Source: Ferruginibacter sp. (lineage in GTDB: Bacteria; Bacteroidota; Bacteroidia; Chitinophagales; Chitinophagaceae). Taken from it: a stretch of DNA of 64,000 bases. Position 1 is the stretch's first letter; each line of letters starts with the position of its first letter. Position numbers and translations under genes: made by a program. A model generated the notes under the pieces. The model was not told the origin of the DNA, did not search any database, and saw only the letters and a list, made by a program, of their open reading frames with translations. The DNA lies in NCBI GenBank assembly GCA_025362235.1, contig JANYGZ010000095.1, positions 733 through 64,732 on the forward strand, written 5' to 3'. Positions 1,425 through 51,173 of this stretch are shown one piece after another.

Positions 1425-1489
1425 TAAAAAAAGTTAAGAGAAGAATGTTCTAAGGAACATTAAAATTTTAAACTTGAAACTAAATAAAA

Positions 1490-1834
1490 ATGGAAGCAGT
1501 AGCAAAACTTAACAATTATCCAACCTCACCGCGTAAAATGCGTTTGTTGATTGATTTGATTCGTGGAATGGAAGTAGAAAAGGCTTTAGGGGTATTACAA
1601 TTTAATCCTAAACATCCGGCTGTTCCTTTATACAAGCTGTTAAAAAGTGCTATCAATAACTGGGAGCAAAAAAATACAGATGTAAAGGTTGAAGATGCTA
1701 AGCTGATCGTTAAAACAGTGACGGTTGATGGAGGAAGAGTGATTAAACGTATGCGCCCTGCACCACAAGGCCGTGGATACAAAGTACGCAAACGCAGTAA
1801 CCATGTTACATTAATAGTAGATAGCAAAAGTTAA
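1490..1834 (+). CDS. rplV: 50S ribosomal protein L22
   Basis: [17 protein letters not shown]...KRSNHVT. Confidence 0.98.
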
Positions 1835-1864
1835 TAAATTAATTAAAACGATTTAATAAACAAT

Positions 1865-2704
1865 ATGGGTCAGAAAACAAATCCGATTGGTATCAGGCTA
1901 GGAATCATCCGTGGATGGGATAGTAATTGGTATGCACATAAAAAAGATTTCGGTAACAAGTTAATTGAAGATCATAAGATCAGAACTTACCTGAATGCCC
2001 GTATCAACAAAGGAGGTATATCTAAGATAGTTATTGAGCGTACGCTCAATAAATTAATCGTAACTATCCATACATCTAAGCCTGGTATTATTATCGGTAA
2101 AGGCGGTGGGGAAGTTGACAGGATTAAAGAAGAGTTGAAGAAATTAACAGGTAAAGAAGATGTTCAGATAAATATTCTTGAAATTCGTCGTCCTGAATTG
2201 GATGCTCAAATTGTAGCAGATACAATTGCACGCCAGTTAGAAGGAAGGATCAATTTTAAACGTGCTGTAAAGATGGCAATTGCATCTGCATTAAGAATGG
2301 GAGCTGAAGGAATCAAGGTTAGATGTGGTGGCCGTTTAGGCGGTGCTGAAATTGCACGTAGCGAAGAAATTAAACAAGGCAGGACCCCATTACATACATT
2401 GCGTATGGATATTGATTATGCAAGCGTATTCGCTCAAACTGTTTACGGAAAAATTGGTATTAAAGTATGGATTTGTAAAGGTGAGGTATTGGCAAAAAGA
2501 GACCTTAATCCTAACATCTTAGCAGGTGGCGGTAAAGAAGCCGATTCAAGAGGTGGTTTTGAAAACCGTGGAGGTTTTGATGATAGAAGAGGCGGCGGAG
2601 ACAGAAGAGGTGGCGGACAAGGCGGCGATAGAAGAGGTGGCGGCGGACAAGGCCAGGGCGGCGGAAACCGTGGTGGTGGCGGACAGCAGGGTGGAAGAAG
2701 ATAA
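1865..2704 (+). CDS. rpsC: 30S ribosomal protein S3 with Gly/Arg-rich C-terminal tail
   Basis: [36 protein letters not shown]. Confidence 0.99.
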
Positions 2705-2780
2705 TTAATTACAAATGTGAAAATAACGCAATAGCTCAATTGAGTATTTGCTGAATTGAGAAATTTTCAAATTATTAGAA

Positions 2781-3215
2781 ATGTTACAACCAAAAAGAGC
2801 AAAACATAGAAAGGCGCAAAAAGGCCGAATCAGGGAAACTGCCAAAAGAGGCACTACCATTGCTTTCGGATCATTTGCTTTAAAAGCACTGGAACCAATT
2901 TGGTTAACTAACAGGCAAATTGAAAGTGCCCGTCAGGCTTTAACACGTCACATGAAAAGGGAAGGGAATGTTTGGATAAGGATTTTTCCTGATAAACCAA
3001 TTACCAAAAAACCAGCTGAAGTAAGGATGGGTAAAGGTAAAGGTAACCCTGAATATTGGGCAGCAGTTGTAGAGCCAGGCCGCATTTTATTTGAGGCAGA
3101 CGGTGTTCCTTTACAGGTTGCAAAAGAAGCCTTTGAACTGGCTGCACAAAAATTACCAATAGCTGTAAAATTTGTTGTTCGCAGAGATTACCAGGCAGAA
3201 GTAATTAGCAAATAA
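2781..3215 (+). CDS. rplP: 50S ribosomal protein L16
   Basis: [24 protein letters not shown]. Confidence 0.99.
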
Positions 3216-3239
3216 GAAAATTCGAAAATTTGAAAATTA
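3216..3239. repeat. 8-mer tandem repeat (GAAAATTY)x3 in rplP-rpmC spacer
   Basis: gaaaattc gaaaattt gaaaatta read directly. Confidence 0.6.
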
Positions 3240-3246
3240 GAATATA

Positions 3247-3459
3247 ATGTCAAAGAAAGCAGATTATTTAACGAGCATAAAGGGTTTAGGCCTTGAAGAC
3301 CTAAAAGCTAAGATAACAGAAGACGAATTACGTTTGAAGAAAGTATCTTTTGCTCATAGTATTTCTCCATTGGAGAACCCGGTTAGCATGCGTTTATTAC
3401 GCAAAGATTTAGCCCGTTTAAAAACAGCATTAAGAAAGATAGAACTCGGTTTAAATTAA
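3247..3459 (+). CDS. rpmC: 50S ribosomal protein L29
   Basis: LENP...RKDLARLKT; position between rplP and rpsQ. Confidence 0.96.
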   Translation: MSKKADYLTSIKGLGLEDLKAKITEDELRLKKVSFAHSISPLENPVSMRLLRKDLARLKTALRKIELGLN

Positions 3460-3477
3460 ACCATAAATTTTGCAACA

Positions 3478-3753
3478 ATGAGCGCAGTAATAACACCGAT
3501 CGAAAGAAATTTACGTAAAATAAGAGTTGGAGTTGTTTCCAGCAATAAAATGGATAAGTCCATTGTAGTGTTGGTAGAAAGAAAAGTAAAGCATCCGCTT
3601 TATGGTAAGTTCGTAAAAAAATCTACCAAATTTCATGCACACGACGAAAAGAACGAATGCAGTATCGGCGATACTGTAAAGATTATGGAAACCCGCCCTA
3701 TCAGCAAAACAAAACGCTGGAGACTGGTTGAAGTGGTAGAAAAAGTAAAATAA
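3478..3753 (+). CDS. rpsQ: 30S ribosomal protein S17
   Basis: [32 protein letters not shown]. Confidence 0.99.
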
Positions 3754-3758
3754 AAATG

Positions 3759-3908
3759 CCCATCCTAAATCCTTCCCCGAGGGAAGGACTATAATATAAG
3801 TGGGTATTAATGTTAAATGATGAACAATAGTTGAAGGGTTAGTGCAGATGATGATAAAATAAACAATGCCAGGCCTCTTCCGATTTATCGGGAGAATAAG
3901 GGTGAGGC
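3759..3908. repeat. REP-like hairpin pair (CCC-rich leader plus stem-loop) in rpsQ-rplN spacer
   Basis: CCCATCCTAAA-TCCTTCCC-CGA-GGGAAGGA-CT (3759-3790) and oppositely oriented GCC-TCTTCCGAT-TT-ATCGGGAGA-ATAAGGGTGAGGC (3873-3908). Confidence 0.6.
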
Positions 3909-3926
3909 TTCTTAAAATTAAATAAA

Positions 3927-4295
3927 ATGATTCAGCAAGAAAGTAGATTGAACGTAGCCGATAACAGTGGTGCCAAACAGGTTTTGTGTATCCGTGTGTT
4001 GGGTAATTCAGGACAAGACTACGCTAAAATCGGCGATAAAATAGTTGTTACTGTAAAGGACGCAACACCTAACGGGGGTATTAAAAAAGGTACGGTAAGT
4101 AAAGCAGTAATAGTAAGAACGGTAAATAAATTACGTCGTAAAGATGGTTCTTATATTCGGTTTGATGATAACGCTGTTGTGTTATTAAACAATGCTGATG
4201 AGCCAAGGGGCACACGTATTTTTGGGCCTGTCGCCAGGGAGTTGAGAGATAAAGGATTCATGAAGATCATTTCATTGGCTCCTGAAGTTCTGTAA
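3927..4295 (+). CDS. rplN: 50S ribosomal protein L14
   Basis: [30 protein letters not shown]. Confidence 0.99.
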
Positions 4296-4371
4296 GAATT
4301 TAAAGTTTCCGGTTTCGAGTTGATCGAAACTTGTTTTTAAAAGAAAAAAAGCCGAAAGGCACATTAATAAA

Positions 4372-4710
4372 ATGAGTACAAGATTTAAACCCAAGTTTAG
4401 CATTAAAAAAGGCGATAACGTTATTGTTATTACCGGTGATGACAAAGACCTGAAAAAGCCACGCAAAGTATTAGAAGTAATATTGGAAAAGGGTCGTGTT
4501 TTGGTAGAAGGTGTAAACATCGTTACCAAGCATACTAAACCAACATCTCAAAATACAAAAGGTGGTATTGTAAAAATAGAAGCGCCAATCAATATCAGTA
4601 ACGTAATGTTGTGGGATGCTAAAGCGGGCAGTGCAACTAAAGTTAAACGTACCAGGGAAAACGGTAAATTAATCAGGGTATCTAAAAAGTCAGGGGAGGC
4701 AATAAAATAA
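4372..4710 (+). CDS. rplX: 50S ribosomal protein L24
   Basis: [31 protein letters not shown]. Confidence 0.98.
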
Positions 4711-48240: not shown

Positions 48241-49806
48241 TTAAGAAAGCATAGGACTTGCAACAACTTTTACCGTATGCTTTATCCGGTTTGCCTGGTG
48301 TATCAATTCCTGTTTTTCTTTACTTAGAATGGTAATATGACCCATCTTCCTACCAGGCCTTGTTTCTTTTTTGCCATAAATATGGACAAAAACATTTTCA
48401 ATTTGTAAAATTTCATTCAGGCCTTCGTACTGCACAGTACCGGAAAATCCATCGGCGCCCACTAAATTCACGATTGCTGCAGGCAATATATGTTCAGTAC
48501 TCCCCAATGGATAACCCAGCATAATTCTCCATAACATATCAAACTGCGAAGAGAAATTTGCTTCAATAGTATGATGCCCGCTGTTATGTACCCTTGGAGC
48601 AGTTTCATTTACAAAAACATTATCCTCCATATCTACAAAAAGTTCAACTGCAAAAATACCTGCACTGTTTAAATACTTTACCACTTTCATTGCAATGGCT
48701 TCCACTTTCCACAAAACTTTTTCGGGCAAATCAGCAGGGCTTATCTGGTATTCCAATAAATTTAATCTTTTATCAAACAGCATATCTACAGCAGGGTATA
48801 CAGCAGTTTCTCCTTTATCATTTACAGCCACAATCACTGAAATTTCTTTTTTAATTTTCACCATTTTTTCCAATACAGAAGGTGCATCAAATCCCTTTTC
48901 AAGATCTTCTTTTGTTTTAAGGATTTCAACGCCTCTTCCATCATAACCTCCCAGGCCTAATTTGTGTACTGCAGGCAAAAAATTTCCCTGTTTTTTTAGT
49001 GCAGCTAAATTCTCTGTTATAATAAAATCACTGGTCGGTATTTCATGATTTTTATAAAATTGCTTTTGTAAAATTTTATTTTTTATAATTTTTAAAGCCG
49101 CAGGATTTGGATAGATTTTTACTCCTTCATTTTGAAGCTTTTCAAGGGCATCAGTATTTACACTTTCTATTTCAATAGTTAGCGTATCAAGGCCTTTCCC
49201 AAAATTATATACGTCATCAAAATTGGCAATATCACCCTTAATAAAATGATTGCACAAATGTGCTGAAGGGCATTCGCTGTCATTTTCCATAACAAAAGTT
49301 TCCACGGGGTAATTGGCCCCTGCTTGTAATAACATCCTTCCAAGTTGCCCCCCGCCTAATATTCCTGCTTTTGGCTGCCCTGAGCGGAGTCGAAGGGGGG
49401 TATTTGTTGGTTGAGCGGAGTCGGGACCTTTTTCCAAGTTATAGTATTTATGGTGTGATAAATTATTGCATTGCGAAAGTAACCGAAGCTTATGAAAATT
49501 GCCCTGTATTAATGCTTCTTTCTTTGATCTGGACCAACCTTTAATTTGTACTTCTCTTTCTGTAGCATCTTTTAAAAACGGAATTGTTTCGTAATATTTT
49601 AATACCAGTGGCCTTCTTTTAAAAGTATAACATGTTTCATAAACACCATTTACATGTTCTTCAAATCTTCTTATCAGGTCATCCGTAAGACCGGTATAAA
49701 AGCTACCATCGTTGCATAAAATTATATACAAATAATAGGCTTCCTGACGGGTGTTATAAAGCATGGTGCAAAATAATTCTTTATTACCACTTTTAAACTC
49801 ACCCAT
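48241..49806 (-). CDS. purK: GIY-YIG nuclease::PurK (N5-CAIR synthetase) in-frame fusion
   Basis: GIY-YIG motifs YLYI..YTG..RR..H..E at 49737-49540; PurK from KAGILGGGQLGRM at 49371, 376 aa, NETAPRVHNSGH, RPGRKMGH; no stop or ATG between domains; start (49806, 49764 or TTG 49848) uncertain. Confidence 0.85.
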   Translation of the reverse strand: MGEFKSGNKELFCTMLYNTRQEAYYLYIILCNDGSFYTGLTDDLIRRFEEHVNGVYETCYTFKRRPLVLKYYETIPFLKDATEREVQIKGWSRSKKEALIQGNFHKLRLLSQCNNLSHHKYYNLEKGPDSAQPTNTPLRLRSGQPKAGILGGGQLGRMLLQAGANYPVETFVMENDSECPSAHLCNHFIKGDIANFDDVYNFGKGLDTLTIEIESVNTDALEKLQNEGVKIYPNPAALKIIKNKILQKQFYKNHEIPTSDFIITENLAALKKQGNFLPAVHKLGLGGYDGRGVEILKTKEDLEKGFDAPSVLEKMVKIKKEISVIVAVNDKGETAVYPAVDMLFDKRLNLLEYQISPADLPEKVLWKVEAIAMKVVKYLNSAGIFAVELFVDMEDNVFVNETAPRVHNSGHHTIEANFSSQFDMLWRIMLGYPLGSTEHILPAAIVNLVGADGFSGTVQYEGLNEILQIENVFVHIYGKKETRPGRKMGHITILSKEKQELIHQANRIKHTVKVVASPMLS

Positions 49807-49874
49807 TTTTCGACTCCTGCATCCTTCGGCTACGCTCAGGATTGGCAAAAATATCCTTCGACTTCGCTCAGGAC
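49378..49874. mobile_element. GIY-YIG cassette flanked by inverted hairpin repeats
   Basis: Left copies CCCTGAGCGGAGTCGAAGGG (49378-49397), GGTTGAGCGGAGTCGGGACC (49409-49428); right inverted copies ATCCTTCGGCTACGCTCAGGAT (49821-49842), ATCCTTCGACTTCGCTCAGGAC (49853-49874); partial TTTCGACTCC (49808-49817). Confidence 0.7.
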
Positions 49875-50039
49875 TATTTACCTTCGTTATAAGATATGCT
49901 TCCCGATTATCCTCATAAAAGATTTTTTGACAAGCGCAATTGCTATACTTTGCTTTTGCTTGCCCTTGCTATGGGTTCGTGATATTGTTGAATGATTTTT
50001 GATAAACAATAATACAATTACGAATTTAATAATTACAAA

Positions 50040-51173
50040 ATGGCAACTTTCACAAGTCAACCCAATGCATTAATTAATACCCCAAACGATTTCCTTCCTT
50101 TACTAGGCACTGATTATGTAGAATTTTATGTAGGTAATGCAAAACAAGCTGCACATTTTTATAAAACAGCTTTTGGATTTCAATCGCTGGCTTATGCCGG
50201 TCCTGAAACTGGTATGAAAGATAAAGTGAGTTATGTTATCAGGCAGAATAAATTAACTTTTGTACTAACAACCCCATTACGTAGTGATAACCCTATTGCA
50301 GATCATATTTACAGGCATGGTGATGGCGTAAAATTTTTAGCTTTAAAAGTTATTGACGCTACTGCCGCATGGAAAGAAACAACAGAACGTGGCGGTAAGA
50401 GCTATATGGAACCAACCATATTAAATGATAATAACGGTAAAGTAGTAATAAGCGGCATACATACTTACGGAGAAACCGTGCATTTGTTTATAGAAAAAGA
50501 AAATTACAATGGACTGTTTATGCCTGGCTTTATACAGTGGAAATCAGATTACAATCCTTCACCAACTGGCTTGTTATATGTAGATCATTGCGTGGGTAAT
50601 GTGGGTTGGAACCAGATGAACACATGGGTAAAATTTTATGAAGAAGTTATGGGGTTTAAAAATATCCTCACATTCGATGATAAAGACATATCTACAGAAT
50701 ATTCTGCCCTGATGAGTAAGGTAATGAGTAATGGAAATGGATTTGTAAAATTTCCTATTAACGAGCCGGCAGAAGGAAAAAAGAAAAGCCAGGTAGAAGA
50801 ATACCTTGATTTTTATAATGGAGAGGGGGTGCAACATGTTGCCATAGCTACAGCAGATATTGTAAAAACAGTTAAAGATTTAAAAAGCCGCGGAATTGAA
50901 TTTTTAAAAATCCCTTATAGTTATTACGAAAATATATTGGATAGGGTGGGTAAAATAGACGAAGACCTTGAACCATTAAGTGAATTGGGAATATTGATAG
51001 ATAGAGACGAAGAAGGATACCTGTTACAGATATTCAGTAAACCTTTACAAGACAGGCCCACATTGTTTTTTGAAATTATTCAACGGAAAGGAGCAAAGAG
51101 TTTTGGTAAAGGAAATTTTAAAGCCTTATTTGAAGCTTTAGAAAAGGAACAAGCGGCAAGAGGGAATTTATAA
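50040..51173 (+). CDS. hppD: 4-hydroxyphenylpyruvate dioxygenase
   Basis: DHCVGN, EGVQHVA, FFEIIQRKG..FGKGNFKALFE. Confidence 0.98.
   Translation: MATFTSQPNALINTPNDFLPLLGTDYVEFYVGNAKQAAHFYKTAFGFQSLAYAGPETGMKDKVSYVIRQNKLTFVLTTPLRSDNPIADHIYRHGDGVKFLALKVIDATAAWKETTERGGKSYMEPTILNDNNGKVVISGIHTYGETVHLFIEKENYNGLFMPGFIQWKSDYNPSPTGLLYVDHCVGNVGWNQMNTWVKFYEEVMGFKNILTFDDKDISTEYSALMSKVMSNGNGFVKFPINEPAEGKKKSQVEEYLDFYNGEGVQHVAIATADIVKTVKDLKSRGIEFLKIPYSYYENILDRVGKIDEDLEPLSELGILIDRDEEGYLLQIFSKPLQDRPTLFFEIIQRKGAKSFGKGNFKALFEALEKEQAARGNL

Follow-up and report, generated by a model that had tools for sequence, protein, structure and literature searches.

A hairpin-flanked GIY-YIG nuclease cassette read in frame into PurK in Ferruginibacter

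Introduction

How is a core metabolic gene translated when its own start codon is gone and the reading frame of a nuclease runs into it without a stop? The question is raised by purK, the gene for N5-carboxyaminoimidazole ribonucleotide synthase, in a 64,000-nt stretch of a Ferruginibacter genome (contig JANYGZ010000095.1), which we refer to as the window; all coordinates are positions in the window, the gene lies on its minus strand, and the genome from which the window is taken is denoted G000. A GIY-YIG nuclease domain, a linker and full-length PurK are found there in one uninterrupted frame at 48241..49848 (-). An earlier note made from the letters of the window, here called the sequence-only reading, took this arrangement for a single open reading frame in which a selfish nuclease had made itself the obligatory translation start of purK, and offered an internal TTG at 49437 as the alternative start of PurK.

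Based on comparison with other genomes of the genus, we favour, with a probability of about 0.63, a joint account of the locus: a cassette similar to those of the Ssn nucleases would have replaced the purK start, the locus would now give a nuclease-PurK fusion from the ATG at 49764 as well as PurK alone from the TTG at 49437, and a ratchet would have left purK dependent on start signals that derive from the insert.

Results

The nuclease and PurK share one open frame

In the fused frame, Pfam places GIY-YIG at residues 38-110 (numbering of the 535-aa frame; 6e-14; 52.5 bits, cut-off 22.6) and, after it, RS_preATP-grasp, ATP-grasp and PurK_C, which span residues 160-517, and the NCBIfam models for PurK match at residues 160-528 (NF004679, 353.7 bits against a cut-off of 326; TIGR01161, 328 bits against 318.4). 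These matches and the sequence itself bear out the single open reading frame that joins GIY-YIG to PurK. The stretch from the nuclease start ATG at 49764 to the body of PurK contains no stop codon and no ATG in frame, as had also been claimed, and the catalytic residues that the sequence-only reading had listed as intact (Y41, Y51-T-G53, R61, H65 and E99) are all present and align with the conserved residues of the UPF0213 proteins 1zg2 (BH0048) and 1ywl (EF2693), the best matches of the nuclease among solved structures (E 5e-12).

The start codon of PurK itself is absent: the window reads QPKAGILGGG without an ATG where relatives read M[KI]K[AIV]GILGGG, and a genome-wide check found purK to be single, with no second copy. 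AlphaFold2, run on the alignment of the fusion, predicted with confidence both the GIY-YIG domain (residues 10-88) and PurK, and gave residues 90-130 a confidence score (pLDDT) below 50; in this model the tail of the nuclease and the linker look like a flexible tether between nuclease and PurK. The features of the locus are listed in Table 1.

Table 1. Features of the fused nuclease-purK locus, in gene order from the upstream end; the whole frame is given last.
Feature	Position in the window	Strand	Remarks
Upstream hairpin copy 1 (tcct-GAGCGAAGTCGA-agga, gene orientation)	49854..49878	-	Left end of the cassette; homology with G239 stops just upstream
Upstream hairpin copy 2 (atcct-GAGCGTAGCCGA-aggat, gene orientation)	49822..49846	-	
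TTATTTTG, near-match to TAnnTTTG	49769..49776	-	Ends 4 nt before ATG 49764; canonical purK spacing is 4-5 nt
Start ATG of the fusion (MLYNTRQEA...)	49762..49764	-	Kept in all intact relatives; 507-aa product
GIY-YIG catalytic domain, Slx1-like / UPF0213 / Ssn-like type	49519..49737	-	Signature Y13, Y23, R33, H37, E71 (507-aa numbering) intact
C-terminal tail of the nuclease (GNFHKLRLLSQCNNLSHHKYYN)	49438..49500	-	Conserved; synonymous sites constrained
TACTTTCG, candidate internal -7 box	49474-49481	-	In the tail, 36 nt before the TTG; one mismatch to the consensus, then the AT-rich leader
In-frame TTG (Leu of NLEK)	49435..49437	-	Probable start of stand-alone PurK; 22-aa N-terminal extension
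Linker of two inverted hairpin copies	49372..49434	-	Cores at 49410-49422 and 49379-49391; predicted disordered; protein-level evolution near neutral
PurK (N5-carboxyaminoimidazole ribonucleotide synthase), K160 to stop	48241..49371	-	Ancestral ATG and one Lys codon gone
Whole open frame	48241..49848	-	535 aa from the upstream TTG; 575 aa from stop to stop

Hairpin repeats border the nuclease gene

The nuclease gene is bordered by repeats, and the order of the cassette is direct hairpins, nuclease gene, inverted hairpins. The core GACTCCGCTCA is found twice in the linker and twice upstream in the opposite orientation (49828-49840 and 49860-49872), four matches against a chance expectation of 0.18. 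The two inverted copies encode the linker, whose peptide includes PDSAQP..PLRLRSG and which is spanned by ..NLEKGPDSAQPTNTPLRLRSGQPK.., in agreement with the earlier claim that the linker is made from the hairpin repeats. The consensus of the repeat is a 12-nt core, GAGCG(A/G)AG(T/C)CGA, between short arms, and the arms vary among copies yet remain complementary (TCCT/AGGA, TACT/AGTA, TTTC/GAAA, GGTC/GACC and others). We counted 135 cores in 33 cassette loci, and all of those upstream were direct (88/88) and all of those in the linker inverted (47/47). In the same 33 loci the arms form 4.1 contiguous pairs, compared with 1.9 when the arms are re-dealt, and it is because of this covariation that we take the repeats to form hairpins.

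A homologue from another family of the order (L110) stands alone between the same hairpins; it shares 55% identity and a similar tail, and its frame ends at a stop codon ahead of the 3' hairpins. Genome-wide, approximately 5 hairpin cores were found in G000, 46 in G012 and 35 in G028, with approximately 0-3 matches for a control pattern, and the core behaves as a dispersed REP-like family in some Chitinophagales; for G000 itself a high-copy REP family was considered and rejected on the basis of its count. In G012 and G028 the core GAGCGRAGYCGA was often paired 20-40 nt apart, mostly away from GIY-YIG genes.

Position of the cassette relative to the canonical purK start

In approximately 20 congeners purK starts with M-[KI]-K-[AIV]-G-I-L-G-G-G, and a TAnnTTTG box, which is the consensus of the Bacteroidota -7 promoter element (PMC6847099), ends 4-5 nt before the ATG. 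The junction in the window reads ...SGQPKAGILGGG, with the ATG and one Lys codon lost. The species whose purK is nearest to that of the window (G239, 93% identical in amino acids) has the canonical form, and in its alignment with G000 both flanks show 88-90% identity, around a segment that amounts to 48 nt in G239 (promoter box, ATG and AAAAAA) and to a 506-nt cassette in G000. These boundaries are repeated in several other sister pairs of filled and empty alleles, at 48-56 nt upstream of, and 0-7 nt before, the first Gly codon of GILGGG. Judged from these allele comparisons, the cassette is in the place of the purK promoter and start codon, which take up approximately 50 nt in most congeners.

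The upstream flank, including the divergently transcribed neighbour at 50040-51173 (+), could be aligned across most of the relatives compared, filled or empty, and the cassette is therefore the sole intergenic difference between them. By eye, the neighbour resembles a 4-hydroxyphenylpyruvate dioxygenase. G006 (L016) is another case without the canonical purK ATG; its closest start in frame, a GTG, is found 16 codons upstream, and approximately 130 nt farther up a piece of the cassette leader (AATAATGGATTATTTTGCAGCC) remains.

Occurrence of the fusion in the genus and in protein collections

When 339 species genomes of the genus were surveyed in six frames, at least 27 of them showed the intact in-frame fusion; the numbers of filled and decayed species from this survey are lower bounds. 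We also searched protein collections with the N-terminal part and obtained 120 matches, all of them PurK proteins; more than 100 of these are clusters of approximately 500 aa that carry PF01541 together with the PurK domains and come from Ferruginibacter or Chitinophagaceae metagenome bins, with an identity in the nuclease part as low as 43%. The search for GIY-YIG plus PurK architectures that the sequence-only reading had proposed is thus answered by numerous species and protein clusters. Full-text literature searches returned no paper on a GIY-YIG-PurK fusion and nothing relevant for UPF0213/YhbQ, and the word 'fused' is absent from the paper on the Ssn nucleases (PMC11893778). The earlier statement that no nuclease fusion of PurK is known therefore holds for the literature searched but not for public protein collections, in which these fusions of approximately 500 aa are annotated plainly as PurK, and this should serve as a warning for annotation.

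Inheritance, loss and possible spread of the cassette

When 85 species were placed on a PurK tree, intact, decayed and canonical alleles proved thoroughly interspersed, with 30 state changes, approximately as many as with shuffled labels, and with supported sister pairs of filled and empty alleles (G000 with G239, G197 with G125, and G263/G070/G080 with G164). The same pattern was obtained with the unlinked marker rpoB, for which at least 8 changes are forced by well-supported branches; the rpoB tree is without G239 and G256, as rpoB is missing from their drafts, and the closest filled and empty pair was compared through its flanks. The tree of the cassette broadly agrees with those of purK and rpoB, and the distances of cassette and purK are correlated (r = 0.74, Mantel p < 0.001) with equal means. 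Approximately unbiased (AU) tests, performed post hoc, gave p values of 0.28, 0.019 and 0.035, which represents weak conflict. Between G000 and G169 the distance is 0.089 for the cassette and 0.19 for purK, and between sister alleles the identity dips in the first 100-200 nt of purK.

The simplest account of these data is that of an old cassette that would have been inherited together with purK and repeatedly lost, either through decay in place or through recombination with the canonical alleles of relatives. Since filled alleles do not contain the canonical 48 nt, the nested canonical alleles need recombination with a canonical donor, and tracts of such recombination are consistent with the identity dips at the 5' end of purK. 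Reversion by excision was rejected for the same absence of the 48 nt, and horizontal transfer of the cassette alone was set aside in view of the broadly congruent trees and of AU tests that are both weak and post hoc.

Patchiness could also arise if the nuclease actively spread the cassette into empty purK alleles, by homing or by hairpin-directed transposition. Such a selfish element would explain the intact, degenerate and empty sites that are interspersed at one position on both trees, the selection on the nuclease while it is intact, the insertion-sequence-like layout of hairpins, gene and inverted hairpins, the identity dip at the 5' end of purK and the closeness of the G000 cassette to that of G169. 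We nevertheless regard it as unlikely: in addition to the congruence of the trees and the weakness of the AU conflict, the cassette is found in sister pairs where vertical descent predicts it and most events look like losses, it is single-copy in G000 with its few hairpin cores, the nuclease is of an Slx1-like lineage without a DNA-binding module, and no copy was found in viral contigs. Active spread is not required by the data.

Translation start of PurK in species with a broken nuclease

A damaged nuclease precedes an intact purK in at least 12 species: G216 and G185 carry nonsense codons (G216 is also without the ATG and Y23), G013, G283, G148, G151, G333 and G110 carry frameshifts, and G024, G207, G183 and G155 are truncated at the 5' end. 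All of the lesions lie upstream of the nuclease tail and none lies between the tail and PurK, and in G216, G013, G183 and G024 the TTG equivalent to window position 49437 is the only ATG, GTG or TTG in the open frame before PurK. Two further species, G091 and G087, bring the number to at least 14; they keep only a non-coding, indel-ridden remnant of the tail (AAGCTT..TTACTTTCGC..AAATATAAAGA) followed by the TTG, with stops directly before it. Of the 36 cassette-bearing species, 34 use TTG for this Leu and the remaining two have ATC and ATA at the position; the 45 nt ahead of the codon hardly vary. An AT-rich leader of this kind fits the way in which start codons are known to be selected in Bacteroidota (PMC6847099). 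Leu occupies the TTG position in 59 of 89 fusion clusters, and another 20 have no Leu there and a Met in the tail or linker instead; one such lineage keeps the canonical MKKIG.

Because decayed species keep the TTG with an intact purK, and because the TTG and its leader are conserved, also at the nucleotide level in intact fusions, we conclude that most lineages, the genome of the window among them, probably produce stand-alone PurK from an internal start. The internal TTG that the sequence-only reading had offered as its alternative is thus well supported by the comparison, and it is compatible with the fusion protein. The candidate -7 box TACTTTCG ahead of the leader is kept in the non-coding remnants of G091 and G087 and may be an internal promoter for the TTG start; for ATG 49764 we infer a promoter role of the near-match TTATTTTG. 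In the 60 nt before purK of G065 (L108), the cassette leader with its ATG runs straight into purK (MTTKKIGILGGG; MTTKKIG...), with no nuclease and no hairpins; this allele has the appearance of an in-frame deletion that removed the entire nuclease open reading frame, which would be a further route of loss.

These alleles bear directly on the first proposal of the sequence-only reading, that the start of the nuclease is the obligatory translation start of purK, which we now consider quite unlikely. The proposal agrees with the lack of a stop or an ATG between the domains, with the in-frame architecture kept across the species and clusters counted above, some lineages of which stay in frame despite a replaced catalytic E71 or R33, and with a few clusters that have no obvious internal start (see Discussion). 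However, the species with a broken or erased nuclease have an intact purK, four of them with the TTG as sole start, and the conservation of the TTG and leader extends to species in which the fusion is intact. What stands is that the cassette replaced the promoter and start of purK; the obligatory role of the nuclease start does not.

Selection on the nuclease

The ratio of nonsynonymous to synonymous differences (pN/pS), computed on the 22 best-aligned species, was 0.19 in the nuclease core (pS 0.78) and 0.16 in PurK (pS 0.73), both with saturated synonymous sites, and 0.15 in the tail (pS 0.45) and 0.76 in the linker (pS 0.41), which show approximately half the synonymous divergence of the other two. 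As judged by these ratios, the nuclease and PurK parts are both under purifying selection. Y13, Y23, R33, H37 and E71 are all kept in 73 of the 89 fusion clusters; the remaining 16 are mostly divergent, with R33 and/or E71 lost and the frame still open, and include a small clade with E71Q. We also observed a second, divergent fusion lineage (G206 and G140, at L071 and L069, and P0101-P0105) with a nuclease identity of 43-48%, no hairpin linker, a junction that reads ...VKKAGILGGG or ...QKKAGILGGG, and mostly E71Q; G206 is nested among species of the main type on the rpoB tree.

Could stand-alone PurK be all that matters, with the nuclease frame a silent relic that is open by chance? The relatives with a decayed nuclease get by on PurK from the internal start and the cassette is patchy and dispensable, as would be expected of a relic, but the low pN/pS of the nuclease core at saturated synonymous sites makes this improbable, as do the five catalytic residues intact in the window and in most clusters, the conserved ATG with a promoter-like box at canonical spacing, and the confidently predicted nuclease fold. 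An assembly or sequencing artefact that joined two genes is hardly credible, even for a draft genome of 111 contigs, because the same in-frame junction is present in at least 27 independent species assemblies and more than 100 metagenomic clusters, with linker lengths that differ by whole codons.

Other GIY-YIG genes

A cassette in multiple copies was considered for G000 and rejected, as the other four GIY-YIG genes of this genome belong to other subfamilies: two are small and stand-alone, a third, on C73, is joined to an exonuclease-like region upstream of it, and the fourth, likely UvrC, lies in a 607-aa frame on C66. Elsewhere, a small GIY-YIG gene that is more distant forms tandem arrays at G017:C4:316956-318212 and 341964-342837 (L118), with four copies at a 340-nt period and three copies at a 338-nt period.

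Discussion

In the joint account that we favour, a hairpin-nuclease-hairpin cassette would have come to sit at the site of the purK promoter and ATG, and its nuclease frame would have lost the stop; translation from ATG 49764 would then cross the 3' hairpins into PurK and give a 507-aa fusion, with the 3' hairpins turned into a disordered linker. This step is argued from the open sequence and from the purifying selection on the nuclease part, and since selection acts on the nuclease, whose frame lacks a stop codon, the fusion would be its only possible product in G000. PurK alone would be made from TTG 49437 through the near-invariant AT-rich leader and a probable internal promoter in the nuclease tail, as the comparative data suggest. 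The likeliest output of the locus consists of two products, the 507-aa nuclease-PurK fusion and PurK with a 22-aa extension, whose existence and ratio we infer from the comparison of alleles. The arrangement would be ancient in the genus and mostly inherited together with purK, and the cassette would be dispensable, either decaying in place, with the tail, TTG and linker kept as the new 5' end of purK, or being swapped by recombination. The result would be a ratchet, in which purK depends on start signals derived from the insert and not on the start codon of the nuclease.

Several observations weigh against this account. Folding of the four hairpins with the nearest-neighbour DNA model of ViennaRNA was no more stable than that of shuffled sequences, and energy models thus give no support to a structure that is argued from covariation. 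The degenerate pattern published for the Ssn repeat (SRM) had no match in the window and one in the genome. The exact TAnnTTTG is conserved neither before the TTG nor before the ATG, where only near-matches are found, and the first linker hairpin starts 10 nt past the TTG and could hinder initiation. Finally, approximately 8 of the 89 fusion clusters have Ile at the TTG position and no obvious internal start, and in some lineages the fusion may be the sole source of PurK.

On a broader view, the cassette could represent an undescribed class of hairpin-ended mobile elements whose sole gene would be a minimal GIY-YIG nuclease and which would insert at, or in frame with, the starts of host genes and persist by giving them a promoter and a start, a conjecture that we hold to be unlikely. 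It is tied to two relatives of the nuclease. At L116 (G003:C48, 782-1588 (-)) a 269-aa open reading frame consists of GIY-YIG followed by a DprA-like domain (DNA_processg_A), and arrays of the same hairpin are found on both sides, with 49-nt spacing. At L115 (G039:C4) a homologue (46% identical) at 2477-2761 lies in frame inside the open reading frame 1478-4375, which encodes a 966-aa protein similar to the R subunit of type I restriction enzymes (HsdR-like); the nuclease segment is placed between the ResIII and SWI2/SNF2 helicase parts, and one hairpin core is found in the open reading frame, approximately 550 nt past the GIY-YIG. If the conjecture is true, the nuclease would be expressed only within a host protein, and the host would be dependent on signals derived from the insert.

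The locus provides a natural and replicated case of an accessory nuclease gene that replaces the expression signals of a core metabolic gene, and one genus preserves all of the stages: the intact fusion, the decayed nuclease, the tail-only remnant, the leader-only remnant and the untouched allele. Testable questions follow on how the dependence of a host gene on an insert arises, on the choice of an internal TTG by the ribosomes of Bacteroidota, which do not use Shine-Dalgarno sequences, and on whether Ssn-type nucleases and their hairpins can move.

Among known systems, the bacterial Slx1-like family, under which an older survey places the UPF0213 proteins, is described there as the minimal variant of GIY-YIG (Dunin-Horkawicz et al. 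2006, PMC1564403), and the nuclease described here shares its catalytic residues with the UPF0213 proteins BH0048 and EF2693. Known members are stand-alone, whereas the nuclease here has no stop before PurK, and the sole prokaryotic fusion in that survey is to a methyltransferase and not to a metabolic enzyme. Homing endonuclease genes are similar in that a single exact site, in a gene of essential type, is found intact, degenerate or empty, with the three states mixed among related species. They differ in that no intron or intein is present here; the insert is N-terminal and supplies start signals, and it is tolerated because of this position and these signals. Furthermore, the tree of the element largely follows that of the host, and the nuclease is from another GIY-YIG lineage and has no DNA-binding domain. 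With the REP/RAYT and IS200/IS605 systems the locus shares a nuclease gene between inverted hairpin repeats and the dispersal of related hairpins in genomes, but their nuclease is a Y1 HUH transposase, whereas the fold here is GIY-YIG and the mobility of the cassette is only hypothetical.

The Ssn nucleases (Chenal et al. 2025, Nat Commun, PMC11893778) are minimal GIY-YIG enzymes with hairpin repeats (NTS/SRM) on both flanks, NTS-ssnA-NTS being the typical arrangement, and their authors compare the layout to that of an insertion sequence; the enzymes bind the repeats and cleave adjacent to them, in single-stranded DNA only. The cassette at purK is likewise composed of a single-domain GIY-YIG of approximately 90-110 aa with copies of a 20-50 nt hairpin repeat on both sides of the gene, and the same repeat is dispersed elsewhere in some genomes. 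Unlike the Ssn genes, however, the nuclease here has no stop and is read into PurK, the hairpin consists of the core GAGCGRAGYCGA with variable arms and differs in sequence from the Ssn repeat, and dispersed repeats are few in the host genome, at approximately five copies. By layout and domain, the insert can be likened to an Ssn cassette whose nuclease would have been deprived of its stop codon and merged with purK, and it adds an unreported architecture, fusion to a metabolic enzyme, to the recently defined hairpin-associated GIY-YIG nucleases.

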